Made by a program: the position numbers and the translations under genes. The notes beneath the pieces were generated by a model, which saw only the letters and a program-made list of their open reading frames with translations, ran no database searches and was not told the DNA's origin. Below, in pieces: positions 1 to 33,530 of a stretch of 46,604 nt of DNA. Position 1 is the first letter of the stretch. Each line of letters begins with the position of its first letter. Source of the DNA: Escherichia phage vB_EcoS-UDF157lw; the sequence record OQ243221; one strand, given 5' to 3'.

Positions 1-44
1 TGGATCAAATAGTTGGTTGGTTTTATCGCTCGCGGAGAGACTTC

Positions 45-235
45 TTTATATACGCGTAGTCCGCTGTCTACCGATTGTCGACCGTATCCACATTTACAAT
101 TTATACGCCTTGATACAATCCATATACACTAAAATATCCTTATATATAAAGTACTTAGACTATTATTATTATTATATATAGTATTATGTATATATAGCGT
201 ATCATCTGTACGCTACTATATAGGTTGGTTTGCTT
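45..235. repeat. AT-rich non-coding block homologous to 27079-27270 (direct repeat, diverged)
   Basis: See partner; contains TATACGC-type repeats at 47-54, 101-108, 198-205 (inverted) and an ATTATTATTATTAT tract. Confidence 0.6.
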
Positions 236-3770: not shown

Positions 3771-3846
3771 GTTCTGCTGGCGTAACAGGATAACGCAGAG
3801 ACCTCCTAAGTCTCAGTTACTGGTTCGAGTCCAGTGCGGAACACCA
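3771..3846 (+). tRNA. tRNA-Arg (anticodon CCU, reads AGG)
   Basis: Hand-folded cloverleaf: acceptor GTTCTGC/GCGGAAC (one G-U), D-arm GCGT/ACGC with GG in loop, anticodon stem GAGAC/GTCTC with loop CTCCTAA (U33, CCT, A37), T-arm ACTGG-TTCGAGT-CCAGT, discriminator A, encoded CCA. Confidence 0.85.
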
Positions 3847-6791: not shown

Positions 6792-6817
6792 GCCCCTTAC
6801 TCAGGGGCTTTTTTATT
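6792..6817 (+). terminator. Rho-independent terminator between terL and portal
   Basis: GCCCCT-tactc-AGGGGC hairpin followed by TTTTTTATT. Confidence 0.65.
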
Positions 6818-6828
6818 GGAGAAATTAC

Positions 6829-8103
6829 ATGGTAAAAGCAGACAGCTACGCAAACATCTTTCTTAGCGGGAGTGATGGTAGTGAGGTTTACGGAAAGTTT
6901 GGCAGCCTTGGCCTAACAGCGCCAGCGCAGCTTGAGCAACTTTACGTCAGCAGCGCTCTGGTTCGTCGAATTATTGATATCGTTCCAGAGGTCGCACTTG
7001 GCGCAGGCTTTAGTATTGAAGGTATCGACGACGAAGGTGCTTTCTGGTCGCGATGGGATGATTTAGGCCTTTCAGATAACGTAATCGACGCACTAGCCTG
7101 GGCGAGACTATACGGTGGCGCTGCTGTAGTGGCAATTGTGAAGGATGGAAGGGCGCTAACCAGCCCGGTTCGTGAAGGTGCGGAGCTTGAAACGGTTCGT
7201 GTGTACGACCGGCAGCAAATTAAGGTCCAGACTCGCGAGGAGAATCCACGTAACGCGCGTTTTGGTAAGCCATTAACTTACCGCATCACACCAAACGGGT
7301 CGGCAACGTTCTACGATGTGCACTATACACGCTGTCACATCATTGATGGCGAGCGAGTACCTAACAACCTGCGTCGTAATAACGATGGCTGGGGCGCAAG
7401 CGTACTAACTGGTGACTTAATTGACGCGATTGACGACTATCAGAACTGTGAGCGACTGGCTACTCAGTTACTTCGTCGTAAACAGCAGGCGGTGTGGAAA
7501 GCAAAAGGCCTTGCTGACTTATGTGATGATTCAGATGGATTTGGAGCAGCTCGTTTACGTCTGGCTCAGGTGGATAATAACAGTGGCGTTGGTCAGGCTA
7601 TCGGGATTGACGCGGATAGTGAAGAGTACAACGTTCTCAACTCAGATATTGGCGGTATTGATACATTTCTGAGTCAGAAGTTCGATCGAATCGTTGCTCT
7701 GAGCGGTATTCATGAGATTATCCTTAAGGGTAAGAATGTTGGTGGTGTGTCAGCAAGCCAGAACACTGCTCTAGAGACTTTCTACGGTTATGTTGACCGT
7801 AAGCGCAAGGCTGAATTATTGCCTCTGCTTGAGTTCCTGCTGCCGTTCATCGTAACCGAGCAAGAGTGGTCAGTAGAATTTAACCCTCTATCGCAGGTTA
7901 GTGACAAGGATAAATCTGAGATTCTTGAGAAGAATGTTAACTCAGTTGCTGCATTGATTGCAGCTGGAATCATTGACGCAGACGAAGCAAGAGATACGTT
8001 GCGCGCAATTTCAACTGAGGTTAAGATTGGTGAAGGCTCAATTCAAACGGAGGTTGTAATTAATGAATCAGAAGACCCGCTGGATGTATCCGCAAATAAT
8101 TGA
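6829..8103 (+). CDS. Portal protein (424 aa)
   Basis: Size and position directly downstream of terL and upstream of the minor head protein; no catalytic motif expected. Confidence 0.7.
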   Translation: MVKADSYANIFLSGSDGSEVYGKFGSLGLTAPAQLEQLYVSSALVRRIIDIVPEVALGAGFSIEGIDDEGAFWSRWDDLGLSDNVIDALAWARLYGGAAVVAIVKDGRALTSPVREGAELETVRVYDRQQIKVQTREENPRNARFGKPLTYRITPNGSATFYDVHYTRCHIIDGERVPNNLRRNNDGWGASVLTGDLIDAIDDYQNCERLATQLLRRKQQAVWKAKGLADLCDDSDGFGAARLRLAQVDNNSGVGQAIGIDADSEEYNVLNSDIGGIDTFLSQKFDRIVALSGIHEIILKGKNVGGVSASQNTALETFYGYVDRKRKAELLPLLEFLLPFIVTEQEWSVEFNPLSQVSDKDKSEILEKNVNSVAALIAAGIIDADEARDTLRAISTEVKIGEGSIQTEVVINESEDPLDVSANN

Positions 8104-8827
8104 GAGCCAGATTAATCGCAGCCTTTTGGTTGCGGTATCTGAACTTATTGAGCAAATGAAGTTATCTGCAAAGAGGCTAAAAATTGACACAGCGCAGGAG
8201 ATTGAAGAGGAAGATTCAGACCTTTCAGATGTAATCTCAGCGCTGCTATCTGGTTTTGTTTCCACTCTGCCTGCGCTGGCACTAGCAATATATCGTTATA
8301 ACTCGGCGCAATTCCTTAAGGTGGCCAACAACTCCGGAGGTAAGAATAATCCTGTAGTTCTTGCGCTAGGATTGTATGGTATTAACGCGGATGAACCATG
8401 GTGGCTCGACACCAGGAACTCCTGGATTGTTGGCACGCAGTTAAGTGCATCAAAGCTGCTAAACAACATCAAGGATGATTTCATAAACAACGCCATTACT
8501 GCGCAGGCTGGTAACACTGTTGACCTTGATGATAGATACCGAATCTACAGAAAGAGAACAGCAAATATCGCTGCTGGAATTACAGGGTCTCTAAACTCAA
8601 ACCTTATGCGGAGAAGGCTTGAAGATGCCGGTGTATCTCAGTATGTTTGGCGTGGTAGACTTGACGACAAAGAGCGACCATCTCACGTTTTGCGTGAGGG
8701 GGTTAGCTTTAAATCAGATGGTTCGGACGCTGGAAAACTTGACGGCCTTGCGATATTCCCCGGTCAGCAATACGGGTGTCGTTGCTGGGCTGTTCCTAAA
8801 TGGGAGAATTTAATTAATGAAGAGTAA
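8063..8827 (+). CDS. Minor head protein, Mu F / SPP1 gp7-like (254 aa)
   Basis: C-terminal region with GCRCW motif typical of Mu F-like head morphogenesis proteins; GGAGG RBS; overlaps portal 3-prime end. Confidence 0.7.
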   Translation: MNQKTRWMYPQIIESQINRSLLVAVSELIEQMKLSAKRLKIDTAQEIEEEDSDLSDVISALLSGFVSTLPALALAIYRYNSAQFLKVANNSGGKNNPVVLALGLYGINADEPWWLDTRNSWIVGTQLSASKLLNNIKDDFINNAITAQAGNTVDLDDRYRIYRKRTANIAAGITGSLNSNLMRRRLEDAGVSQYVWRGRLDDKERPSHVLREGVSFKSDGSDAGKLDGLAIFPGQQYGCRCWAVPKWENLINEE

Positions 8828-9938
8828 AATGCGTTATGATAGCGCCAAGGTAAAAGCCCGTTTCGATGAGAACGGTTTTCTCGTGGACACCCCAGTGGTT
8901 GCTCGCGTAGGTGTACAAACCTACTATATGCCAGATGGTTCAGAGCGCCGAGAGTTCCGTCCGGCTTCAGAGGTTTTTAAAGCCGATTCGCTGCAAAGTT
9001 ATCAGGGTAAGCCGCTAACTCTTGGCCACGTGGTTGTCAACTCTGAAAATGCTAAAGAGGTGGTTGTTGGTTCTGTGTCTGGCTCAGCTATGCGTCAGGA
9101 CTCCGCAGTGATTGTTCCTCTTACCGTTTACGACAAGGAAGCAATTGAGAAGGCCAAGTCTGGCGTTGCTGGTGAGCTCTCTGTTGGCTACAACACTGTT
9201 GACATTGAGTCTCCTGGTTGGGGTAGTAATGAAACGGGTGAGTACAAGCTTGATGGAGAGTACGCAAGCCAGGATGAGATTCCTGCTGATTGGGTACGCT
9301 TTGATGCGCTACAGACGAATATCGTTGTTAATCATATCGCACTCGTATATAAAGGTCGCGCAGGTATTGCTAAACTCAATCTGGACGCGGAACAGGAAAA
9401 CCCGTATACTGATACCGTTCAATCAAATAAAGAGGATAAATTGATGATTAAGATTAAACTCGATGGCGAACAGGAGTTCGAAATCGCCCCGGAAGTTGCT
9501 AAGCATATCGAAGCTGTTAAGGCTGATGCAGAGCAGGCTAAAGCTAAAGCTGACACTCTGGAAGCTGAGCGCGATGCGCTTAAAGCTAAAGTTGATGCAA
9601 TGCCAGCAGAGATCGAGAAAGCAGTTGCTAAAGCGAAAGCAGACGCAGACGCGCTCGCAACTCTGGTTGCTGTTGCTGCTGAAGCTGGTGTTAAAGCTGA
9701 TGGTCTGGATGCTAAAGGTATTAAAGTAGCTTACGTTAAAGAAGTTTCCGGCCTGGATGTTTCTGAGAAATCTGACGCGTATATTGACGCAGCGTTCGAC
9801 ATTGCTAAAGAATCTGATAAAATGGCTGAAGTTCGTAAGGCTACCGTAGCCTCCGATAAATCTGACAGCAAAGAAGAGTTGACGCTTATTGATCCGCGCG
9901 CTCGAATTGCTAAATCTAAATCCAAGAAGGAGAAATAA
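8817..9938 (+). CDS. Putative prohead protease / scaffolding protein (373 aa)
   Basis: N-terminal globular domain followed by a long Ala/Lys/Glu-rich predicted coiled coil (AEQAKAKADTLEAERDALKAKVDA...), typical of scaffolds; position before capsid genes. Confidence 0.6.
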   Translation: MKSKMRYDSAKVKARFDENGFLVDTPVVARVGVQTYYMPDGSERREFRPASEVFKADSLQSYQGKPLTLGHVVVNSENAKEVVVGSVSGSAMRQDSAVIVPLTVYDKEAIEKAKSGVAGELSVGYNTVDIESPGWGSNETGEYKLDGEYASQDEIPADWVRFDALQTNIVVNHIALVYKGRAGIAKLNLDAEQENPYTDTVQSNKEDKLMIKIKLDGEQEFEIAPEVAKHIEAVKADAEQAKAKADTLEAERDALKAKVDAMPAEIEKAVAKAKADADALATLVAVAAEAGVKADGLDAKGIKVAYVKEVSGLDVSEKSDAYIDAAFDIAKESDKMAEVRKATVASDKSDSKEELTLIDPRARIAKSKSKKEK

Positions 9939-9940
9939 TA

Positions 9941-10435
9941 ATGGCATTTCGTCAAGCAGCATTAGCGGGTATGGTATCTGATACCTCTCTTTACAATATC
10001 GATGGCGCGTGCGTTCTAGGCGGCACCGCTCAGGTGCAGGTTGGTCAGGCAGTTGGTGTTAGCGAAGTTGAAGTTACTGGAACTAGTTCATCTGGTGCAG
10101 GTCATAAAACTGTAGTTGGTTCTGGCATTACGACCGCTAACGTTTATGGCGTTGCTGTTCGCTCGCATTATGAAGCTGTTGATGGCTTCTATCGACCGCA
10201 AGAGGCAATTAACGTAATGACGGCTGGTAGAATCTGGATGAAAACCACACTGTCAGCAGCACCTGCATTCGGAACTGCAATCACTCTTGATGCGACTGGA
10301 ATTGTTGTTTCTAGCGGCGCTGTTGAGCCAGCTGGTTGGACTTTCGCAGGTGGCTTCATTGCTGGCACTGCGGTGCAGGGTCAGTCAGCACCTTATGATG
10401 GTGCACTGATTGAAGTTCAGGTTAAGCAGAAATAA
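9941..10435 (+). CDS. Putative capsid-associated (decoration-like) protein (164 aa)
   Basis: Gly/Ala/Val/Thr-rich beta-type composition; position between scaffold and capsid; followed by terminator. Function is positional inference. Confidence 0.4.
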   Translation: MAFRQAALAGMVSDTSLYNIDGACVLGGTAQVQVGQAVGVSEVEVTGTSSSGAGHKTVVGSGITTANVYGVAVRSHYEAVDGFYRPQEAINVMTAGRIWMKTTLSAAPAFGTAITLDATGIVVSSGAVEPAGWTFAGGFIAGTAVQGQSAPYDGALIEVQVKQK

Positions 10436-10452
10436 TTGACCGTGTAAATATA

Positions 10453-10475
10453 ACCCGCTTCGGCGGGTTTTTTAT
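10453..10475 (+). terminator. Rho-independent terminator
   Basis: ACCCGC-ttcg-GCGGGT hairpin followed by TTTTTTATT. Confidence 0.7.
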
Positions 10476-10529
10476 TGCCAAAATTCTGTTACAATCATTA
10501 AGACTATTAACCGATATGGAGTAAATGAA

Positions 10530-12074
10530 ATGGCTTTAGAGTTTATGGAAGTTGTAGCTAAGACTTATGGCGACCTGGAGAGGCTAGTAAAGGCAAAAAT
10601 GCTAGAAGGATGGATGCCATTTGATAGCTTAATTGACAATAGATTTACTATCGCAATTGTTATGGTTAAGGGTAGTGATGCGCAGCTTACCGACTTTAGG
10701 ATTCTCGGTGATAGCACTAGAGTTAAATTAATAAGCAAGGCTAACAAATTAATTGCTGATGACCCTGAGTGGGAGGTTTTCGGTCACCCTCAAATATTTG
10801 GCGCTGACGATTACATAGTTTCATTATCAAAAGGCTTTAAGGGAACTACTGGTAGGGATGGCATGGCTGGCCCGCAAGGACCGCAAGGACCGCGCGGCGA
10901 AGTTGGCCCAGAAGGTCCGCAGGGTCCAAGGGGTGACGATGGCGCTGATGGGGAAAAGGGTGAGCGTGGAGCAGTAGGCCCGCAAGGACCAATTGGCCCA
11001 CAGGGTATTCAGGGTCCACAGGGAGTTCAAGGGCCAGCTGGATTAAAGGGCGATAAAGGTGATAAGGGTGATGTTGGCCCACAGGGACCACAAGGATTAA
11101 AAGGTGATACTGGAGAGAAAGGCGACCCTGGAGAAGTTGGCCCTGCTGGTTTAACATTCCGTGGTCAGTGGGTTCCTGGCACTGGTTATACAAAAGACGA
11201 TACCGTAGTTTATAACGGATCAACTTACTTTGCGGTTAATGATATTGCAGCTGATGAGGAGCCAGGTGTATCACCTTTGTGGGTGGTTCTTGCCGCTCAA
11301 GGCACGAAAGGTGACAAGGGTGATAAAGGCGACCCTGGAGATATCGGACCTCAAGGGGAGAAGGGTGATACTGGACCTCAAGGTCCGAGAGGTATTCAGG
11401 GTCCGCAAGGTATTCAGGGGTTAACAGGTGAGCAAGGTCCGCAAGGTGAGCAGGGGCCGCAAGGGATTGTTGGGCCGACTGGACCGCAAGGGCCAAAAGG
11501 TGACACCGGACCTCAAGGTATTCAAGGGCCGCAAGGCATCAGGGGACTTACTGGGCCGATAGGACCACAGGGACCGCAGGGAGAGAAGGGCGAAAAGGGA
11601 GATAAAGGGGAAAAAGGCGAAACTGGTGCAACCGGACCACAGGGTCCAGCGGGTCAAAATAATACAAATAATCCAGTTTATACAACTCAACTTACCGTAT
11701 CTACAAGCTACTCAGCTATAGCCATACCAAATAACCCTGGTGTATCTTTTACAATCAGGAGGGTTGGTAATAACATTGAGTACTCTTTTACAGGCAACTC
11801 AATTCCAGGAAGGTATTTTGATGTTGAGGTTGTAAACTTTCCATCAGCTGACGTAGTTAAAAGATACCAGTCAAATCAGACAATTTCAGGTACAAATAGG
11901 TATGTTGTAGGTGATCCTGCTGGTTATACTGGCGGTGGATACAAAAGGATTCAATTCTCAGCTAGAGATTGGGGGGATAAAAACATTATAATGATTGATG
12001 TTTTTCACCTTCAGCGCCCAACTGATACTAGTTTTAGCATCGCAATTAGGATTGAGACATTCAAGCTGCCATAA
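10530..12074 (+). CDS. Collagen-like repeat protein with embedded carbohydrate-binding-like motif (514 aa); putative fibre/decoration
   Basis: Two blocks of uninterrupted Gly-X-Y triplets (about residues 110-205 and 265-385) separated by [26 protein letters not shown]...PLWVV, which resembles CBM5/12 chitin-binding-type motifs; distinct N- and C-terminal globular domains. Confidence 0.85.
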
Positions 12075-12089
12075 GATTAAAGGTCGCCA

Positions 12090-12117
12090 TTGCGCGGTCT
12101 TAAAACTCGTGTATAAT
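12090..12117 (+). promoter_or_regulatory. Candidate sigma70 promoter upstream of major capsid gene (TTGCGC, 16 nt, TATAAT)
   Basis: Perfect TATAAT at 12112-12117 with TG immediately upstream; TTGCGC at 12090-12095. Confidence 0.45.
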
Positions 12118-12153
12118 GTCAACGTACACTGTTAACCAAAAGGATAAATAGGA

Positions 12154-13098
12154 ATGACTATTAAGCTAGATGCTTTCGAGCAGAACAAAATCACCGAACA
12201 CCTGCGTAACATGGGTGTTGAAAAAGCTGATGCAGCTGGCATTTGGACCATCAAACAGCTGACTCAGACGCTTAACCGTAACTACGATCGCGAATATTCT
12301 GAAACATCTGTAGTTAACCTGTTCCCGGTCACTAACGAAATTGGCGCTTACGCTAAATACTTCGAATACGGCGAAATGGATGGTGTTGGCTTAGCTCAGA
12401 TTGTAGCTGATTATTCAGATGATTTGCCGCTGGTTGATGCACTGATGCAAGAGAAGCAAGGTAAGGTGTTCCGTTTTGGTAATGCATTCCTGGTTTCCAT
12501 CGATGAGATTGCGGCTGGCGCAGCTACTGGTCAATCACTGTCTTCTCGCAAGCAGGCTCTTGCATTCGAAGCTCATGACAACCTGCTTGATAAGCTGGTT
12601 TGGAAAGGCTCCGCACCTCACGGCATTAAGTCTGTATTCGATTACGACAACGTAAACCAGGTAGTTCCAAGCGGCGCATGGACTACAGCACAGACTGCTT
12701 ACGCTGACGTTAATAGCCTGCTGGATATTATCGAAACAGCAACCCAAGGCATCCATCGAGCTAACAGGCTGCTTCTTCCGGCATCCGCTCGTCGAGTAAT
12801 GCAAACTCTGGTCCCGAATACTGGTATTAGCTACTTTGAGTTCTTTGCCCGTAACAACAATGGCGTACAGGTGGAGTTCCTGCAACTCCTTGACAACTAC
12901 GATGGCGCAAACGGCAAGGCTGCAATTGCTTATGAGTACGACCCATTGAACATGAGCATTGAGATTCCAGAAGCTACTCACGTCCTTCCAGCTCAACCGA
13001 AGGATTTGCACTTCAAGTTTCCTGTAACCTCCAAGTCTACTGGCCTGATTATCTACCGACCTCTGACCGTTGCAGTAATGAAAGGTATCACCTTCTAA
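12154..13098 (+). CDS. Major capsid protein (314 aa)
   Basis: Size, position after scaffold, dedicated promoter and strong downstream terminator (high-expression signature). Confidence 0.7.
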   Translation: MTIKLDAFEQNKITEHLRNMGVEKADAAGIWTIKQLTQTLNRNYDREYSETSVVNLFPVTNEIGAYAKYFEYGEMDGVGLAQIVADYSDDLPLVDALMQEKQGKVFRFGNAFLVSIDEIAAGAATGQSLSSRKQALAFEAHDNLLDKLVWKGSAPHGIKSVFDYDNVNQVVPSGAWTTAQTAYADVNSLLDIIETATQGIHRANRLLLPASARRVMQTLVPNTGISYFEFFARNNNGVQVEFLQLLDNYDGANGKAAIAYEYDPLNMSIEIPEATHVLPAQPKDLHFKFPVTSKSTGLIIYRPLTVAVMKGITF

Positions 13099-13104
13099 TA
13101 AATA

Positions 13105-13126
13105 GCCCTCTTCGGAGGGCTTTTTT
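13105..13126 (+). terminator. Rho-independent terminator after major capsid gene
   Basis: GCCCTC-ttcg-GAGGGC hairpin followed by TTTTTT. Confidence 0.75.
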
Positions 13127-13188
13127 ACGTCTGTACTAAATGAATCATAAAGTATATAATTCATTTATAGACTAAACAGGAGGAAAGA

Positions 13189-13437
13189 ATGATTAAGTTA
13201 GAACACGTTGGTGCTTGCCTTATTCGATTTGCTGGAAATGATTACCTGCCAGGACAAATCATTGAAGTAGAAGAGTTGAATGACGGTTTTAAGCGATTGA
13301 TTGCTGAGGGTCGACTTGAGGTAATGGAAGACCGCAAGGCAACCAAGAAAGTAATTGAAGAAATTGAAAGCAAGAAGGTTAAAAAGAAAGAACCAAAGAC
13401 TGTAGACGAAGCTGAAAACGGCGGCGAGTACAAGTAA
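13189..13437 (+). CDS. Hypothetical protein (82 aa), Lys-rich C-terminus; isolated transcription unit
   Basis: RBS aggagga; flanked by terminators on both sides; upstream inverted repeat AAATGAAT...ATTCATTT spanning a TATAAT. Confidence 0.5.
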   Translation: MIKLEHVGACLIRFAGNDYLPGQIIEVEELNDGFKRLIAEGRLEVMEDRKATKKVIEEIESKKVKKKEPKTVDEAENGGEYK

Positions 13438-13444
13438 CCAACAC

Positions 13445-13468
13445 GGACGCTTTAGAGCGTCCTTTTTT
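13445..13468 (+). terminator. Rho-independent terminator
   Basis: GGACGCT-ttag-AGCGTCC hairpin followed by TTTTTT. Confidence 0.7.
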
Positions 13469-13483
13469 GTATGGAGATATAAA

Positions 13484-13885
13484 ATGAATGAAGAAGTAAT
13501 CGCATATATAAGGCAGCTGTACCCCCCACTTAACAACCAGCCGGATGATGTTCTTAACGCATGGATTGAGGTGGCGAAGCTTTTTATCTGCTTAGGCAAG
13601 TTTGGTGACAAGCAGGTTCAGGCACTGGCATTCTACACTCTTCACTTGCTTAGCCAGGATATTGCACTCAAGACTGAGAATGATTCAAGCCAGACATCAT
13701 CTGAGCGGGTTAAGTCCTACTCACTTTCAGGCGAGTACACGATTAGCTACGATACAAGCACTGCCGCAGCTAGCTCATCAAACCTTGAGGAATCCTCATG
13801 GGGTAAGCTTTACATTGATTTGATGCGTCGCAAGGTTGGCCGCTGGGGCTTGATTACCTCTGGTGGGTCGAGGTGCTGCCGATGA
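13484..13885 (+). CDS. Putative head-tail connector / head completion protein (133 aa)
   Basis: Position between capsid and tail genes; overlaps next gene. Positional inference. Confidence 0.45.
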   Translation: MNEEVIAYIRQLYPPLNNQPDDVLNAWIEVAKLFICLGKFGDKQVQALAFYTLHLLSQDIALKTENDSSQTSSERVKSYSLSGEYTISYDTSTAAASSSNLEESSWGKLYIDLMRRKVGRWGLITSGGSRCCR

Positions 13886-14250
13886 ATCATGCACTTTTGC
13901 AGCAGCAAATTAAGGCTGGTATTAATCTCCTGTCAGATGGTGATGGAGTTTTCGAAGCTACGACACAGCCAGCCATCTCTATCGTTAATGGCTATGAAGT
14001 GCGCACACCAGGCACTTCCTACACTGTGCGGGGTGTTATTCGTGAATTCAAAGCAAGAGACATTGACGGTGACATCATCAAGTTCGGTGACCGTCGCGGA
14101 ATTTTTACTGCTGATTCAGTTGTATCGGAAGGCGACCGCATCTACATTGACCAGGAAGCCTACACAGTCATTGACCCTAGACCAGTGAAGCCGACCGGAA
14201 CGGTAATCGCCTACAGGCCAGTACTGCGGAGGGCTGCAACATATGGCTAA
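13873..14250 (+). CDS. Putative head-tail joining protein (125 aa)
   Basis: Overlapping ORFs in a connector gene cluster; positional. Confidence 0.45.
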   Translation: MLPMNHALLQQQIKAGINLLSDGDGVFEATTQPAISIVNGYEVRTPGTSYTVRGVIREFKARDIDGDIIKFGDRRGIFTADSVVSEGDRIYIDQEAYTVIDPRPVKPTGTVIAYRPVLRRAATYG

Positions 14251-22318: not shown

Positions 22319-22368
22319 TTTAGTGTAGAATGGCACAAATGGTTAAACAAACAACGAGGTTATATGAT

Positions 22369-25300
22369 ATGGCCGATTTGCCAAAGATTTATGGAAGCAA
22401 GGGTGGTAGCAAGAAGCCGCACACGCCTGTAGAGCAAGAAGATAACCTGATTTCACTAAACAAGATTAAGGTGCTACTGGCTGTAGCTGATGGAGAGGTT
22501 GATTCTAGTTTCTCGCTCAAGGATGTTTACCTTGCTGACGTTCCGGTGCAAAACCAGGATAACTCATTCAACTATGAAGGTGTGACAGCTGAGTTTCGCG
22601 CCGGCACTCAATCCCAAGATTACATCGCAGGACTAGATGGCGCGGCATCAGAGATTCAGGTTAGTCGTGAAATTAACAACGACACACCTTACATCATCGC
22701 AGTTAACAACAGTCAGCTATCAGCAATCCGCGTTAAACTGTTCTGGCCTCGGCTCGTTAAGCAAGAAGAGAATGGAGATTTAAATGGAACAACATGTGAA
22801 TATGCAATCGATTTATCAGTTAATGGCGCAGCGTACACGGAATATACCAGAGGCGTGGCTAACGGTAAAACTACAACAGGTTACGACCGCAGCATCAGGG
22901 TTAACCTACCAGCCGAGTTTAGCAGCGCTCTTGTTCGTATTAGGAAGTTAACGCCAGACTCAACAAGTAGCACTCTGGTTAACGGAATGCAGATTACAAC
23001 CTATCAGGAAGTAATCGACGCTAAGTTCCGCTACCCTCTTACGGCACTTGTTTATGTGGAGTTCAGTTCTGACCTGTTCCCTAATGGCATCCCAACGATA
23101 GCCATTAAGAAAAAGTGGAAGCTTATCCGTGTGCCGACAAACTACAATCCAGAGACAAGAACTTATAGCGGAGCATGGGATGGAACCTTTAAAATGGCAT
23201 GGTCTGACAACCCGGCCTGGGTTTTATATGACCTGGTGGTTAGCCAGCGTTACGGTTTAGATCAGCGAGAACTTGGTGTTGAGATTGATAAATGGGGTCT
23301 GTATGAAGCAGCGCAATTCTGCGACCAGATGGTTCCTGATGGTAAGGGTGGAATGGAGCCGCGATATACTTGTAACGTTGTCATTCAGCAGAAAGTGGAA
23401 GCGTATCAGCTTATTCGTGACATCTGTTCTATCTTCCGCGGTTTAACCTTCTATGATGGTGAGCAAATCGGGATTGTTGTAGACAGGCCGCGCCAGCCAA
23501 GCTATGTGTTCACTAATGATAACGTTGTTGATGGATTGTTTAACAGGACATTCTCTAGCGACAAGAGCCTTTACACGACAGCCAACGTTCAGTTTGATGA
23601 CGAGCAGAACAACTACCAGCAGGACGTCGAGCCAGTATTCGACTTAGAAGCAACACGCCGATTTGGTTACAACCCTGTAGACTTGACTGCAATTGGCTGC
23701 GTAAGGCGAAGCGAGGCTAACCGCCGTGGTCGCTGGTTGCTGAAAACAAACCTTCGCAGTGAAACGGTAACGTTCACAACTGGCCTCGAAGGCATGATTC
23801 CTATGATTGGTGATGTAATTGCTGTTAATGACCAGGCATGGTCAAGCAACTACACATTAAACCTTTCTGGTCGAATTGTTGAAGCTACAGGTTTGCAGGT
23901 CTTCGTACCATTCGCTATTGATGCTGACCCTGGTGACAGGATTTTAATCAACAAGCCAGATGGGAGCCCAGAGTACAGGACTATCGCTTCAGTATCTGCC
24001 GATAAGTTGACGCTTGAACTGAATACAGCATTCAGCTTCACACCTCAGCCGGATACGGTATTTGCAATCGACAAGCAGAATCTGGCGTTGCAGCAATACG
24101 TTGTGACAGGAATTCAAAAAGCAAACACGGACGGCGAGGATTCATTCCAGTACAGCATCACTGCGGTGCAGTATGACCCGAACAAGTATGACGAGATTGA
24201 CTATGGTGTGAATATTGACGACAGGCCAACAAGTATCGTTGACCCTGACAGGATTTTACCACCTGAAAATATCACCGTTACTAGTTACAGCAAGGTAGTT
24301 CAGGGTTTAAGCGTTGAGACGATGGTTATTGGTTACGACAAGGTGCAGTATGCGAAAACATACAACGTACAATGGCGTAAGAACAATGGTAACTGGATTA
24401 ACGTACCAGAGACGGCTAACACCGAGGTTGATATTGAAGGAATTTACGCTGGCATCTACGACGTAAGGGTTCGTGCCGTAACTGACCAGAAATCAGTATC
24501 TGCCTGGTCTGATATAACGACAGTTAGCCTGACCGGCAAGATTGGGGAACCTTCGGCGCCGCCTGTAATTACCGCATCTGATGATGAGGTTTTCGGGATT
24601 AGGGTTAAGTGGGGTTTTCCTACTGATTCAGCTGACACTGCGTACACTGAGCTTCATCAGGTTCCTGATAATGGTGACGGTACATACAATCCAGAGAGCG
24701 CATCGCTGCTTACACTGGTTCCGTATCCTCAGTACGAATACTGGCACACCACTTTACCAGCAGGTAACGTGAGGTGGTACAGAGCGAGGATTATTGACAG
24801 GATAGGTAACGTATCGCCATGGACTGATTTTGTAAGGGGCATGGCATCTGACGACGTAAGTGCAATAATTGGTGATATCAAGGTTGATATCGAAAACTCT
24901 GATGGTTACAAGTACCTACTTCAGAACGCCATTGATGCAAACACGGATATCCAGAATCAGGCTGAGGCAATTATAGAGAACGCCCTGGCAAACGATACTG
25001 ACGTTCGCGTTATGAAGCGCGAGAATGGCGCAAGGAAGGCTGAATATCGTCAGGCTGTAAGTTTGATTGCTGATGAAACTCAGGCCCGTGTGGACGCTCT
25101 CACGCAGCTTAAAGCGCAGATTGATGATGAGATTGTTGGTCAGATTACGACAATTGAAACCGCGCTTGCTACGGAGACCGAAGCCAGGGCTACAGCTGAT
25201 ACTCAATTAAGCGCAAGGCTTGGTGATAACGAGGCGGCTTTGAATCAGAAGCTTGACTCTTATGCCACTGTCGAAGGGGTTGGTGTTCAGTACGGCGTCA

Positions 25301-25755
25301 AGCTAGGCCTTAAGTACAATGGGGTTGAGTATGGCGCTGGTATGAGCATGGAGTTAACAGGTAGCGGCGGTAATGTTCGCAGTCAGTTCATTTTCGATGC
25401 TAACAGGTTCGCAATCAGCAACGGCATTAGCTCTGGTTCAGGTCAGTGGTCGCTGCCTTTCGTTGTGGAGAATAACCAGGTGTTCATTCAGAGCGCGGTG
25501 ATTCAGGATGGTTCAATTACTAACGCGAAGATTGGTAACAGGATTCAATCAAACAACTATGTTGCTGGTAGTGCTGGTTGGGCAATTGATAAATCTGGTT
25601 TTGCTGAGTTAAGTAACGCTACCGTTCGCGGTAGTTTGTACGCTAACAATGGTAACTTCGCGTTTAACGGAACCAACAATACTGTCGTAATAAACAATAA
25701 CGGCATAACTGTTAATTTACCAAATGGAGGTAGGGTAGTGGTTGGAGTATGGTAA
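22369..25755 (+). CDS. Central tail fibre / host specificity protein (lambda J-like, about 1128 aa)
   Basis: Length and position; N-terminus ...KGGSKKPHTPVEQEDNL resembles J-type N-termini; start moved to ATG 22369 with GAGG RBS. Confidence 0.85.
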   Translation: MADLPKIYGSKGGSKKPHTPVEQEDNLISLNKIKVLLAVADGEVDSSFSLKDVYLADVPVQNQDNSFNYEGVTAEFRAGTQSQDYIAGLDGAASEIQVSREINNDTPYIIAVNNSQLSAIRVKLFWPRLVKQEENGDLNGTTCEYAIDLSVNGAAYTEYTRGVANGKTTTGYDRSIRVNLPAEFSSALVRIRKLTPDSTSSTLVNGMQITTYQEVIDAKFRYPLTALVYVEFSSDLFPNGIPTIAIKKKWKLIRVPTNYNPETRTYSGAWDGTFKMAWSDNPAWVLYDLVVSQRYGLDQRELGVEIDKWGLYEAAQFCDQMVPDGKGGMEPRYTCNVVIQQKVEAYQLIRDICSIFRGLTFYDGEQIGIVVDRPRQPSYVFTNDNVVDGLFNRTFSSDKSLYTTANVQFDDEQNNYQQDVEPVFDLEATRRFGYNPVDLTAIGCVRRSEANRRGRWLLKTNLRSETVTFTTGLEGMIPMIGDVIAVNDQAWSSNYTLNLSGRIVEATGLQVFVPFAIDADPGDRILINKPDGSPEYRTIASVSADKLTLELNTAFSFTPQPDTVFAIDKQNLALQQYVVTGIQKANTDGEDSFQYSITAVQYDPNKYDEIDYGVNIDDRPTSIVDPDRILPPENITVTSYSKVVQGLSVETMVIGYDKVQYAKTYNVQWRKNNGNWINVPETANTEVDIEGIYAGIYDVRVRAVTDQKSVSAWSDITTVSLTGKIGEPSAPPVITASDDEVFGIRVKWGFPTDSADTAYTELHQVPDNGDGTYNPESASLLTLVPYPQYEYWHTTLPAGNVRWYRARIIDRIGNVSPWTDFVRGMASDDVSAIIGDIKVDIENSDGYKYLLQNAIDANTDIQNQAEAIIENALANDTDVRVMKRENGARKAEYRQAVSLIADETQARVDALTQLKAQIDDEIVGQITTIETALATETEARATADTQLSARLGDNEAALNQKLDSYATVEGVGVQYGVKLGLKYNGVEYGAGMSMELTGSGGNVRSQFIFDANRFAISNGISSGSGQWSLPFVVENNQVFIQSAVIQDGSITNAKIGNRIQSNNYVAGSAGWAIDKSGFAELSNATVRGSLYANNGNFAFNGTNNTVVINNNGITVNLPNGGRVVVGVW

Positions 25756-30788: not shown

Positions 30789-30816
30789 AGAAAAAGCCCC
30801 TTTCGGGGCTTTTTTA
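30789..30816. terminator. Bidirectional rho-independent terminator
   Basis: AGCCCC-tttc-GGGGCT flanked by an A-run upstream and a T-run downstream. Confidence 0.7.
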
Positions 30817-31842
30817 TTGTGACGTTACATCACCATTCAAACTCAAAAATACTGATTGTTTTGTCAAATCAACACCACCTTTAAGCGAATAGTATCTTGA
30901 AGCGCAATAATCAGACTCATCTGAATAGCTGCCAACGTAAACACCAAAGCCATATCCAGAGCAAGCTACATCACCAGCGCCTTGACCTGAATACATGGTT
31001 ACATAGTTACCGGCTGTTGTTAGTATAGGTCTGACATCAATATCTATATACTGAGAATCAAATGACCTTCTAACTCTAAATCCAGTATTCAGGTTTAAGA
31101 TGCTCCACCAAACCTTACCAGATACATCAAAACCAAGAGCAATATTGTAAGTACCACCGTTGACCATTCTTGATGAGACTGGCAACACACCTGATAAAAC
31201 TCTTGTTTCACCTGATGCTGATATTAACAATGAGACACTGTGTTCTCCTGATGCCATCACGTTATACTGCAAGTAAAGAGCATTACTACTAACTCCAAAA
31301 CCAGTCCCTATAGCCATAAGGTTAAAGTCTTCAGCAACAGTTATGGTCGGCGATATATTGCATGTAGCGGTGAAACCTAGTGACGGGTCAAATCCAGTGC
31401 ATATAATCTTATCTTTATTTGCCTGTGAAAGCCTTAGCCAATATTGCTGCCCAACTGATGATGCCGCTGCGGCGAATACTGGTGTATTAGAGACCCCATC
31501 AAAAGCTGAAGTGTCGTTTGCTGGCTTAATTCTTGTCTTCCTTTTGTCTATCAGTCCGTTTATCTTCAGGTTTCCTGAATACTCAGCAACATAGTTAGTG
31601 TCCCCTGAGAAATTTGGGCCAAAGTAACCAGATTCAACAACCCCATCGATCACAACATCAGATCTTGAGTCAAGGAATCTGAAGTTGCCAGCGGAAGTTG
31701 GCCTTCCATCGCCATTGTTAGATACATAGTTAAGCCCAACAAAACCATAGATTCTTACAGAGCTATTTGAAAACGAAACGTTATAATCTCTGTAGTTTGA
31801 GTTTATGCTGTTCCTGTTACTATTTAATCCATTAAATACCAC
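30814..31842 (-). CDS. Tailspike/tail fibre C-terminal portion (342 aa ORF; probably the continuation of 31854-33530)
   Basis: No ATG or RBS (GTG in track); reading frame is open 26 codons further upstream and overlaps the end of the 558-aa ORF in another frame; Ser/Gly/Asn-rich beta composition. Confidence 0.5.
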   Translation of the reverse strand: MVFNGLNSNRNSINSNYRDYNVSFSNSSVRIYGFVGLNYVSNNGDGRPTSAGNFRFLDSRSDVVIDGVVESGYFGPNFSGDTNYVAEYSGNLKINGLIDKRKTRIKPANDTSAFDGVSNTPVFAAAASSVGQQYWLRLSQANKDKIICTGFDPSLGFTATCNISPTITVAEDFNLMAIGTGFGVSSNALYLQYNVMASGEHSVSLLISASGETRVLSGVLPVSSRMVNGGTYNIALGFDVSGKVWWSILNLNTGFRVRRSFDSQYIDIDVRPILTTAGNYVTMYSGQGAGDVACSGYGFGVYVGSYSDESDYCASRYYSLKGGVDLTKQSVFLSLNGDVTSQ

Positions 31843-31853
31843 ATTTCTGGAGT

Positions 31854-33530
31854 TTACAATTCTAACACCGTCACCACCGCAATCCTGCGCCCTATAGCTG
31901 ACATGGTGATGTTTTGGCAGTTATCAATCAGGATGCCATAAGCATCATCAAGCTCATTATAAGCCGACCAACCCGACCAAATAAACTTACCGCCAACAAT
32001 CCTACAGTTTCCGGCATTCCTAAGTATTAGACAATTTCTTCCACAGGTGTTTACCTGTATGTTATTCCATGTGAAGTCTGTTGTTTCGTTAATCAATCCG
32101 TCTTTTTTTATGTGCTGAATAAGAACATCATCAAGAACAGGAGAGTAGTTACCAGCAGCAACGAAAATTCCGTAAACATCAAACCCAGCAATGTGAGTGT
32201 TTCTTATCGTTAAGTCCCTTCTAGGGTCAGCACCAGCGTTGAATGGGTAATTGGTTGATAACCCAGTCGGCGTAGGGATGTAAATCCCAGCAGTACCATC
32301 AGTAAACGCCGTGTCTTGCTGGGCTCCAGTGCCGTAAAGAGCAATGCCTTCAATATGAATGAGCGAGCAAGAATCAGATACCTCAATTAAAGAGCCAATT
32401 GATGAACTAAGCTGAGTTATTCTTGATTTGTGCTTGCCAAAACCAATTATAGAGCAAGATTTATTTCTCATTACCAGGTTTGATGCCATGTAGTCGCTAT
32501 CAAGCTTTAATGCCAGCCCAGAGTCTAGGATTTGCTGTATCTGTGTCGTTGAGTCTGATGTCGATGACTTAATAGCTCCAAGTTCGCAAGGCGACAGCTC
32601 CCCGCTACAGATTCTTTCCCAGTAATAACCGGTACTTGATTCAAAAACCAATCCTGAAGATAATCCATATGATAACGATGACTCCGGCTTACAAACAAAG
32701 AACCCACCACCATAACCAAGACCACCAATGTAAGAATCACAATAGACAACCTCTAAGTCATAAATTCTGGCAGAGTTTGTCATTGCTGATACTGATTCAA
32801 ACCTTCTTGTGTAATCCTGTTGAATCCAAAAACCAACTCCAATACCACCTGTAGACTGTGGTGATGAGTTTTGTGGTATGGATTTTGGAACGCTACCAGA
32901 CCAGTAATAAACCGAAACATGATTGTCATTAAAGTAAATTGCAGGCTGAGTTCTTGAGTTTATTTCTCCACCATTTGAGAAATCAACTACAAGAGCAGAT
33001 GACACAGAAGCCGCAGCAGAGCTTGCTATTGTAGCTGAAGAGGAAGCTGAGTTAGCGCTACTTTCAGCTAACTGCCTATCAGAAGATACCTGATCTTTGT
33101 CAGAAGAAACTTGAGCAGCATCAACAGCAACTTGCTGAGATTGCATGTTGACATTATTTACGCTTTGCTGGAAAGAATCAGAATCAAATTGATTAAAAGC
33201 ATCAACTGCCGCTGCAACCTCTGTTTCACGGGACTGATAATAACGAAGTGTCTCAGCAACGTCCTGAGCAAGACCTTGGACAGTAATTCCGTCATGAGCA
33301 AGGATTGAGTACTGAGTCCCAGCTGGCGCAGTAAAACCTTTATCATTGAATACACGAATCTCTGTATCGCTTAAAATCTCAGCGATAGTAACAATGCTTG
33401 TCGGGGTGGTGTTAAAAATCATTGTTGCGCCAACTCGGATTAGCGTTAGTGGTTGCCTCCACGTGGTGCCAACACCAGTTACAGTTCCGTCAGCTGCAAG
33501 CGATGCAGTTCCAGCGTCATAAATTGCCAT
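31854..33530 (-). CDS. Tailspike / side tail fibre N-terminal portion with beta-helix-like repeats (558 aa)
   Basis: GGAGA RBS; N-terminus MAIYDAGTASLAADGTVTGVGTTW; Ser-rich linker; repetitive N/G/I-rich segments consistent with a parallel beta-helix. Confidence 0.6.
   Translation of the reverse strand: MAIYDAGTASLAADGTVTGVGTTWRQPLTLIRVGATMIFNTTPTSIVTIAEILSDTEIRVFNDKGFTAPAGTQYSILAHDGITVQGLAQDVAETLRYYQSRETEVAAAVDAFNQFDSDSFQQSVNNVNMQSQQVAVDAAQVSSDKDQVSSDRQLAESSANSASSSATIASSAAASVSSALVVDFSNGGEINSRTQPAIYFNDNHVSVYYWSGSVPKSIPQNSSPQSTGGIGVGFWIQQDYTRRFESVSAMTNSARIYDLEVVYCDSYIGGLGYGGGFFVCKPESSLSYGLSSGLVFESSTGYYWERICSGELSPCELGAIKSSTSDSTTQIQQILDSGLALKLDSDYMASNLVMRNKSCSIIGFGKHKSRITQLSSSIGSLIEVSDSCSLIHIEGIALYGTGAQQDTAFTDGTAGIYIPTPTGLSTNYPFNAGADPRRDLTIRNTHIAGFDVYGIFVAAGNYSPVLDDVLIQHIKKDGLINETTDFTWNNIQVNTCGRNCLILRNAGNCRIVGGKFIWSGWSAYNELDDAYGILIDNCQNITMSAIGRRIAVVTVLEL

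Follow-up and report, generated by a model that had tools for sequence, protein, structure and literature searches.

The window analysed here, the whole 46,604-nucleotide stretch from Escherichia phage vB_EcoS-UDF157lw (record OQ243221), represents the genome of a T1-like siphophage, complete or nearly so, that belongs to the Rogunavirinae (Drexlerviridae) as a Rogunavirus. In its head block, a gene for a collagen-like protein, called the fibre protein below, lies between the genes of a capsid cement protein and the major capsid protein (Table 1). A sequence-only reading of this DNA had placed the gene between the scaffold and major capsid genes. The position inside the head block was confirmed and is conserved in relatives, but the direct neighbour is the cement gene and not the scaffold gene. 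The head region (6800-14000) showed 98% DNA identity to the E. coli O157 phages AKS96, AHP24, AHS24, AHP42 and BECP10, save for a block inside the fibre gene.

The fibre protein consists of five parts, in which two collagen runs are separated by an insert and flanked by an N-domain and a C-domain. The two long Gly-X-Y runs around the insert and the separate terminal globular domains, as described in the earlier reading, were recovered from the open reading frame (ORF) together with all the quoted peptides. Glycine occupied every third position in up to 40 consecutive triplets, while the longest such run in 2000 shuffles of the protein was 8, with a mean of 3.5. The Pfam Collagen profile (PF01391) scored 123.4 bits (E 3e-36; cut-off 27.2 bits). 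Pro was the commonest residue at X, and Q, K or T at Y. Related E. coli phage collagens are known to trimerise (PMC3368898). AlphaFold2 gave confident models for both terminal domains, with predicted local distance difference test (pLDDT) values of 90.4 for the N-domain (12-sequence alignment) and 88.7 for the C-domain (14-sequence alignment), which supports their globular nature. The whole protein matched phrog_5073 (E 5.9e-136), with amino acids (aa) 1-510 covering positions 1-515 of the 519-position profile. We take this match as a sign of family membership alone, the functional label of the profile being annotation.

The modelled N-domain contained a strand-helix-strand-strand arrangement twice. 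Alignment of the two halves with hhalign gave a probability of 98.1% (E 7.6e-14), and the N-domain is therefore a tandem duplication. Both modules resembled the DUF1737 domain at the N-terminus of phi24B gp84. The family profile of module 1 aligned with gp84 aa 1-35 (Prob 97.3%, E 2.7e-11), module 2 aligned less strongly (Prob 88.7%, E 2.5e-6), and the whole-domain profile A2 aligned with gp84 aa 1-58 (Prob 97.1%, E 5.7e-11), the common motif being EGWQPYGS. The Pfam DUF1737 profile (PF08410) gave 65 bits with gp84 itself, and was passed by the family members P0006 (27.6 bits), Bas01 (26.7), P0130 (31.3), P0135 (31.8) and P0178 (47.3). In several relatives it was reached on either half of the N-domain. 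Searching 1.84 billion representative proteins with the N-domain profile recovered 97 relatives only. All eight complete collagen-bearing matches have two modules, while the esterase gp84, which is monomeric, has one. The DUF1737 of gp84 was identified by cryo-electron microscopy and proteomics as a capsid-binding domain, composed of a helix and three antiparallel strands, which occupies, itself as a hexamer, the pore in the middle of capsid hexamers; collagen fusions of the domain are not described in that work (bioRxiv 10.64898/2026.04.10.717836). The homology to a domain with this behaviour is one reason to consider the fibre anchored on the capsid.

The presence of the protein in virions could be judged from an orthologue. 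Rogue1 gp21, encoded between the Rogue1 cement and capsid genes, shares the five-part architecture (E 6.5e-38 for the N-domain, 1.6e-26 for the insert and 1.1e-25 for the C-domain). Its band was one of three from purified particles that were separated by sodium dodecyl sulphate-polyacrylamide gel electrophoresis and identified by matrix-assisted laser desorption/ionisation mass spectrometry, with 59.5% coverage, and the authors remarked only on the repeats of gp21 and on the erroneous 'DNA polymerase' label given to its JK06 homologue (PMC3496638). Absence from purified virions, which the sequence-only reading had named as the result that would speak against it, thus does not apply to this orthologue. 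We regard the fibre as very probably a virion protein.

Further indications came from the genes that occupy the same position in other phages. In the head modules of Rogunavirinae and Braunvirinae relatives, the fibre gene was found between the cement and capsid genes. We surveyed this slot in 80 loci whose capsid gene is related. It was empty in 48 (about 60% of relatives), while 24 had a second cement paralogue there, six a tandem-DUF1737 protein and one an esterase alone; no cement gene was found in the remaining locus. The fibre gene is therefore accessory. In Rtp, rtp26 (cement) is followed directly by rtp27 (capsid). The six tandem-DUF1737 proteins comprised two collagen forms of 505 aa, one split short form and three mini-fibres of 224-229 aa that lack collagen. 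We also noted that the mini-fibres (L018 4219-4908, L022 4219-4908 and L024 4234-4908) carry the anchor, fibre motifs of the GDVTGKPxTF type and a C-terminal coiled-coil-like segment.

The other occupants of the slot appeared to be capsid-surface proteins. In phage T1, ST48 (L015 14282-15049) combines a Phage_cement paralogue (64 bits), a PPPPPP linker and a Big_2 immunoglobulin (Ig)-like domain (30 bits). Judging from these domains, ST48 is a cement protein by which an Ig domain is displayed on the capsid. An SGNH/GDSL esterase of phrog_9703, labelled 'head decoration', accompanies the collagen gene in AugustePiccard Bas01 (Bas01_0009, L008 1629-2918) and in one IMG/VR contig (L025 1934-3325), and stands alone in another (L017 3866-4909). 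These esterases parallel the capsid-borne esterase gp84 of phi24B, yet their N-terminus is not DUF1737-like. No likeness to DUF1737 was seen in the N-terminus of the Bas01 esterase, the Hoc paralogue of VR25, the neighbours of the W70 homologue or T1 ST48. Since the cement paralogues and the 'head decoration' esterase belong to the capsid surface, they form a second argument for capsid anchoring. A third is provided by the T4-like phages VR25 and Kosakonia 305, in which a homologue of the collagen, insert and C-domain parts lies in the hoc locus, immediately 5' of a Hoc paralogue that shares the Hoc C-terminal region (BLASTP 6e-28; phrog_1149). In the myophage homologues, namely VR25 (L004 6809-8389), Kosakonia 305 (L005 6914-8320), W70 (L006 7758-9341) and P0003, a short N-terminal peptide with the motif G(V/I)(F/Y)YG..(F/L)YD(L/I) replaces DUF1737. 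This peptide may be a different capsid or adaptor anchor.

The insert was compared with carbohydrate-binding modules of families 5 and 12 (CBM5/12), to which the sequence-only reading had likened it. The Pfam CBM_5_12 profile (PF02839) matched aa 213-249 with 21.0 bits (E 3.4e-4), under its cut-off of 26.2 bits, and homologues scored 18-21 bits. A phmmer search of the insert against the PDB gave All3316, from the contractile injection system of Anabaena (5e-4), and the chitin-binding domain of ChiC (3.6e-3). With profile A4, built from 36 collagen-embedded modules, the chitin-binding domain of B. circulans chitinase A1 (ChiA1, 1ED7) was matched at E 2.2e-6, as were Chitinase 60, ChiC and other chitinase and deacetylase CBM5/12 domains. 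The multi-copy relatives P0065, P0016 and P0104 exceeded the Pfam cut-off with 52-58 bits. The supposed resemblance was thus borne out, and by these profile comparisons the homology to the CBM5/12 superfamily is real, though below the Pfam threshold for the fibre protein itself. The insert shares the fold pattern W..(x)Y..(G)D.V.Y.G..Y...P....W with ChiA1 (1ED7) and ChiC (2D49). However, it would be located within the stalk of a presumed trimer, while the ChiA1 and ChiC domains are attached to an enzyme. Every full-length family member has one copy, always with Gly-X-Y directly on both sides, and many unrelated bacterial and phage collagen proteins have two to five. A module that interrupts collagen in line in so many proteins is more likely to be structural, and we read it as a node in the stalk that serves registration, nucleation or as a hinge.

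The C-domain was modelled as a 10-strand β-sandwich. Its significant neighbours in a library of viral structures were the C-termini of the phage collagen-like proteins of JS10, Aeromonas 65.2 and BECP10, and PDB sequence searches with either terminal domain, as a single sequence or as a profile, gave nothing significant. The model suggests a generic β-sandwich without a specific structural match, for which binding of glycans or mucin is plausible. Although the C-domains of the Drexlerviridae slot proteins are very different, an iterated hidden Markov model joined all of them into one divergent family. The relationships of this domain did not follow those of the N-domain. The C-domain was 92.7% identical to that of Phagiculus/MM01 (Rogunavirinae), 90.5% to W70/A73 (Vequintavirinae myophages), 85% to PAS7 (an Autographiviridae podophage), 57% to Kosakonia 305 and about 32% to VR25/VR26 (T4-like), while the N-domain was 99% identical to AKS96-type phages and 38% to Phagiculus.

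The same exchange was visible in the DNA. The identity to AKS96 was 95-100% up to about 10940, within collagen run 1; the sequences then could not be aligned until about 12080, after which the identity was 98-100%. The slot gene of AKS96 encodes a 294-aa short form that lacks the insert. Over the exchanged block, Phagiculus was 80-98% identical throughout, and W70 82-97% identical over the C-domain. These comparisons indicate that the stalk and tip form a mobile cassette, for which the collagen repeat serves as the recombination site, and that the N-domain travels with the head genes. Retention of the N-domain and exchange of the tip at sharp DNA junctions is what would be expected if a virion anchor carried a swappable tip. 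In a 46,440-bp IMG/VR contig with a 99% identical capsid gene, the short-form slot gene (L016 4035-4920) is divided into two ORFs, of 150 aa (anchor and collagen) and 151 aa (C-domain), by a frameshift in or just after the collagen repeat.

From the observed architecture, homologies, gene neighbourhoods, cassette exchange and virion presence of the orthologue, we consider the protein to be probably a dispensable, capsid-anchored trimeric adhesin fibre; its trimeric state, capsid location, docking on hexons and ligand are what we infer. The two collagen runs would trimerise the protein into a thin fibre of about 65-75 nm with three knobs. The proximal knob, formed by the tandem DUF1737-type modules, would anchor the fibre on the capsid exterior, a placement that we hold to be somewhat more probable than otherwise. 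The likeliest site would be the middle of a hexamer of the major capsid protein; there, the two modules on each of three chains would add up to six for the six-fold site. This docking is a tentative proposal. In the middle knob, the CBM5/12-fold module would chiefly serve the triple helix as an in-line node, for registration or as a hinge. The distal knob, a hypervariable β-sandwich, would bind a ligand of the host surface or the environment, probably a polysaccharide. If this binding is weak and strain-specific, it could provide a reversible first contact that improves the odds of the tail finding its receptor. The stalk and tip move among phages as a cassette by recombination within the collagen repeats, and the N-domain remains with the capsid genes. 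A further step, that the duplicated DUF1737 resolves the symmetry mismatch between a three-fold fibre and a quasi-six-fold hexamer, with up to 60 fibres per capsid and tips traded with tail fibres, seems rather doubtful to us.

Several observations weigh against a capsid-anchored fibre. The fibre protein itself gave no match to Pfam DUF1737 at E up to 1 and its pairwise BLASTP comparison with gp84 was insignificant (E 1.1), so that the homology is profile-based. The anchoring loop of gp84, with its Tyr42 'tooth', corresponds to a gap in the module-1 alignment. Capsid binding by DUF1737 is known from one preprint, and the phi24B capsid protein is of another Pfam family than the one here (PF13252 vs PF09950). 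Proteomics of AHP24/AKS96 lists seven excised bands and the short form is not among them, which is not decisive. Two homologues that carry the C-domain cassette lie elsewhere, that of W70 about 5 kb 3' of the capsid gene and beside a fibritin-like protein, and that of podophage PAS7 next to a tailspike gene, the sole case of this kind. Finally, P0147 (L012 2191-4929) and P0161 (L096 974-3655) have a DUF1737-like N-terminus with one module according to the half-profiles. The '3 x 2 = 6' arrangement is thus not general, and DUF1737 may anchor elsewhere. As a general rule, '3 x 2' was weakened by these single-module β-helix proteins. P0147 and P0161 are about 900 aa long and carry a precomputed Pfam 'Phage_tail_beta' (PF27114) match, with a weak pectate-lyase-like match in P0147; their genes are located among small genes, 5' of a Mu-type portal. 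These proteins could be depolymerases carried on the capsid, or a sign of DUF1737 anchoring elsewhere. The genomic contexts of the distant DUF1737-fronted proteins were uninformative on the attachment site.

The protein might instead be a lateral or side tail fibre, with the N-domain docked on the tail tube, tail tip or baseplate and the position in the head block incidental. Phrog_5073, many other collagen PHROGs and the GenBank and RefSeq records are labelled 'tail fiber'. However, these labels are automatic and driven by collagen, and the PHROG of the same N-domain is labelled 'DNA polymerase'. The C-domain is 85-90% identical to annotated side tail or tail fibres in W70/A73 and PAS7, the neighbouring tailspike of PAS7 also fits, and so do the DUF1737-like N-termini that front 'Phage_tail_beta' proteins. 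There are also well-described tail fibres of the collagen-like type, both from E. coli prophages (PMC3368898) and, as gp61, from phi24B. Against these points, the known anchor domains PF08400, PF03406 and PF06820 gave no match at E up to 1, and elsewhere the genome already includes genes for a central fibre and, separately, for a dedicated lateral fibre. The homology of the N-domain to a capsid-binding domain and the capsid proteins that otherwise occupy the slot also disagree with a tail location, which we consider unlikely. A neck or collar whisker at the head-tail connector, acting like T4 fibritin as an environmental sensor or adsorption aid, would agree with the fibre gene lying just 5' of the connector and neck genes, and with the W70 homologue adjoining a collagen protein that has a Fibritin_C domain. 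Yet the only solved case of DUF1737 binds hexons, and the slot is otherwise occupied by cement paralogues and 'head decoration' PHROG proteins, not neck proteins. We regard a whisker as very improbable.

Wherever the fibre is attached, it might bind glycans by the middle knob rather than the tip, if the insert were a functional carbohydrate-binding site as the sequence-only reading proposed. The profile-level homology to chitin-binding domains and the retention of the insert across the family while the C-domain varies are compatible with this role. The exposed aromatic residues that bind chitin are W59/W60 in ChiC and W687 in ChiA1. In the HMMER alignments, the fibre insert has D/I at the former positions and E, before a conserved P, at the latter, and so lacks these tryptophans. 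The invariant aromatics of the family (Y, W, W) are fold-core positions instead. The module runs straight into Gly-X-Y on both sides in one to five copies per protein, which fits a structural node, and a conserved middle with a hypervariable tip is the usual pattern where the tip holds the specificity. Glycan binding by the middle knob is thus quite unlikely. Of the earlier proposal of a capsid-attached, glycan-binding fibre, the attachment gained support from the DUF1737-type N-domain, the capsid-surface occupants of the slot and the Hoc neighbour, while binding through the insert did not.

Comparison with known systems placed the capsid-anchored fibre near several dispensable capsid proteins. 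SPP1 gp12 is a non-essential collagen-like trimer, of which 180 copies bind at hexon centres to the exterior of a T=7 HK97-fold capsid (PMC6813328; PMC7602432). It is thus a three-fold object on a quasi-six-fold site, as is proposed for the fibre, a resemblance of function and architecture only. However, gp12 has 6.6 kDa and a short collagen segment, without a distal domain, DUF1737 anchor or CBM-like insert, while the fibre protein has 56 kDa, 76 triplets and three globular units. The gp12 gene also lies in the head block, beside the capsid gene. With phi24B gp84 and the NanS-p esterases (DUF1737-SASA), the N-terminal DUF1737 is shared, being homologous to each half of the N-domain; gp84 is also encoded outside the tail module, dispensable and outward-facing. 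In gp84, however, which is proteolytically processed, a single DUF1737 precedes an esterase and then a domain of lectin fold, whereas in the fibre two modules precede collagen.

T4 Hoc, T5 pb10 and phi29 gp8.5 are dispensable outward capsid proteins thought to be weak adhesins to cell surfaces or mucus (PMC7602432). The T4-like homologues of the fibre stalk and tip adjoin a Hoc paralogue. However, Hoc and pb10 are monomeric and Ig-like and gp8.5 is an α-helical trimer at quasi-three-fold sites, and we found no sequence or fold similarity of the fibre protein to any of the three in this analysis. The EPclA/B proteins (PfN-PCoil-Col-Pf2-Col-PfC) form trimeric dumb-bell or three-knob fibres of enterohaemorrhagic E. 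coli prophages; in EPclB, two collagen segments are parted by a small globular repeat, and the C-terminal knob nucleates the triple helix (PMC3368898). This collagen-globule-collagen layout is that of the fibre protein. In contrast, PF08400 (PfN), PF03406 (Phage_fiber_2) and PF06820 (PfC) are absent from the fibre protein at E up to 1, and the EPcl genes are located in tail modules while the fibre gene lies in the head block. Judged by its domains, the fibre protein belongs to none of the SPP1 gp12, gp84, Hoc-type or EPcl groups, except for the DUF1737 anchor detected by profile and the collagen repeat.

Table 1. Features of the fibre gene and its surroundings in the window.
Feature	Residues (aa)	Position	Strand	Remarks
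Portal		6829-8103		
MuF-like protein		8063-8827		
Protease/scaffold		8817-9938		One gene further 5' than the cement gene
Capsid cement/decoration protein	164 in total	9941-10435	+	E217 gp24/Pam3 gp6 type; Pfam Phage_cement E 3.2e-21; XM1_gp53_minor_capsid E 4.3e-12
Terminator-like hairpin and T-run		10452-10477	+	Between cement and fibre genes; AACCCGCTTCGGCGGGTT followed by TTTTATT
Collagen-like fibre coding sequence	514 in total	10530-12074	+	ATG start; ~56 kDa; phrog_5073 end-to-end match
N-domain	1-101			
N-domain module 1	1-50	10530-10679	+	DUF1737-type β-α-β-β; AlphaFold2 E4-10 H13-25 E28-30 E41-47
N-domain module 2	51-101	10680-10832	+	Second DUF1737-type module; AlphaFold2 E52-61 H64-77 E81-90 E94-103
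Collagen run 1	102-209	10833-11156	+	36 unbroken Gly-X-Y; ~31 nm if triple-helical; Pfam Collagen
Insert	210-257	11157-11300	+	48 aa; CBM5/12-superfamily module in the stalk
Collagen run 2	258-377	11301-11660	+	40 unbroken triplets; ~34 nm if triple-helical
C-domain	378-514	11661-12071	+	Predicted 10-strand β-sandwich; hypervariable, putative distal knob
Cassette left junction		~10940		Approximate; inside collagen run 1
Cassette right junction		12075-12080		Approximate; just past the stop codon; AKS96 identity back from the 12080 bin
Major capsid protein		12154-13098	+	Pfam PF09950 E 2e-40; phrog_264 E 2.2e-91
DUF7444 protein, connector, neck and tail genes		3' of the major capsid gene		Connector/neck from 13484 on
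Central tail fibre		22330-25755		
Lateral tail fibre gene		30814-33530	minus	Conserved; phrog_4818, profile length 896

The hairpin between the cement and fibre genes has an equivalent that is annotated as a terminator in the AKS96 record, and it probably lowers read-through into the fibre gene. A consensus scan directly 5' of the fibre gene found no sigma-70 promoter and the terminator alone, which may hold the expression of the fibre below the level of the cement protein. ORFs of 60-125 aa in other frames or on the opposite strand overlap the collagen gene (10565-11690), and an antisense ORF of 209 aa overlaps the capsid gene (12535-13164). These are most likely by-products of the repetitive, skewed composition and not genes. 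The lateral fibre gene is interrupted: the ORF 31854-33530 covers profile positions 1-540, a second ORF in another frame, 30814-31842, covers positions 559-896, and a β-helix-like motif, GGDGVRIVNSRNVV, runs on across the break in the third frame. The split reflects either a frameshift mutation or an error in sequencing, and if it is real, the intact lateral fibre has been lost. A single tRNA-Arg with anticodon CCU was found at 3771-3846, which matches reports for related Rogunavirus genomes.

The gene family is already known in databases as phrog_5073, and we found no relevant literature on collagen in Drexlerviridae or Rogunavirus. The new element is that the protein is read as a fibre of the capsid, whose anchor is duplicated and whose tip is common to tail fibres. 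The PHROG of the N-domain region (10530-10970, aa 1-147) that bears the 'DNA polymerase' label is phrog_22681, and several RefSeq records give this name to the whole fibre gene, an inherited mis-annotation that the Rogue1 authors had already criticised.

Taken together, this family, which routinely goes by 'tail fibre', is more probably a sticky fibre carried on the capsid. If so, a protein family found in many sequenced coliphages has been filed under the wrong organelle, as tail fibre, DNA polymerase or hypothetical protein. This would affect host-range prediction and the mining of receptor-binding proteins, in which 'tail fibre' stands for a specificity determinant of the tail. A dispensable fibre with a defined anchor and a swappable tip would also be a display scaffold for phage engineering. 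The DUF1737 anchor would extend from esterases to fibres and from Shiga toxin (Stx) podophages to Drexlerviridae, and would offer a testable rule for the docking of trimeric fibres on six-fold capsomers. The sharp cassette junction within the collagen repeat shows that collagen-coding DNA can act as a recombination linker by which sipho-, myo- and podophages trade adhesin tips. If the symmetry-mismatch reading were true, the head would be a second, exchangeable host-recognition organ in many T1-like coliphages, mis-annotated as 'tail fibre', and likewise in some T4-like and rV5-like phages through a different anchor.

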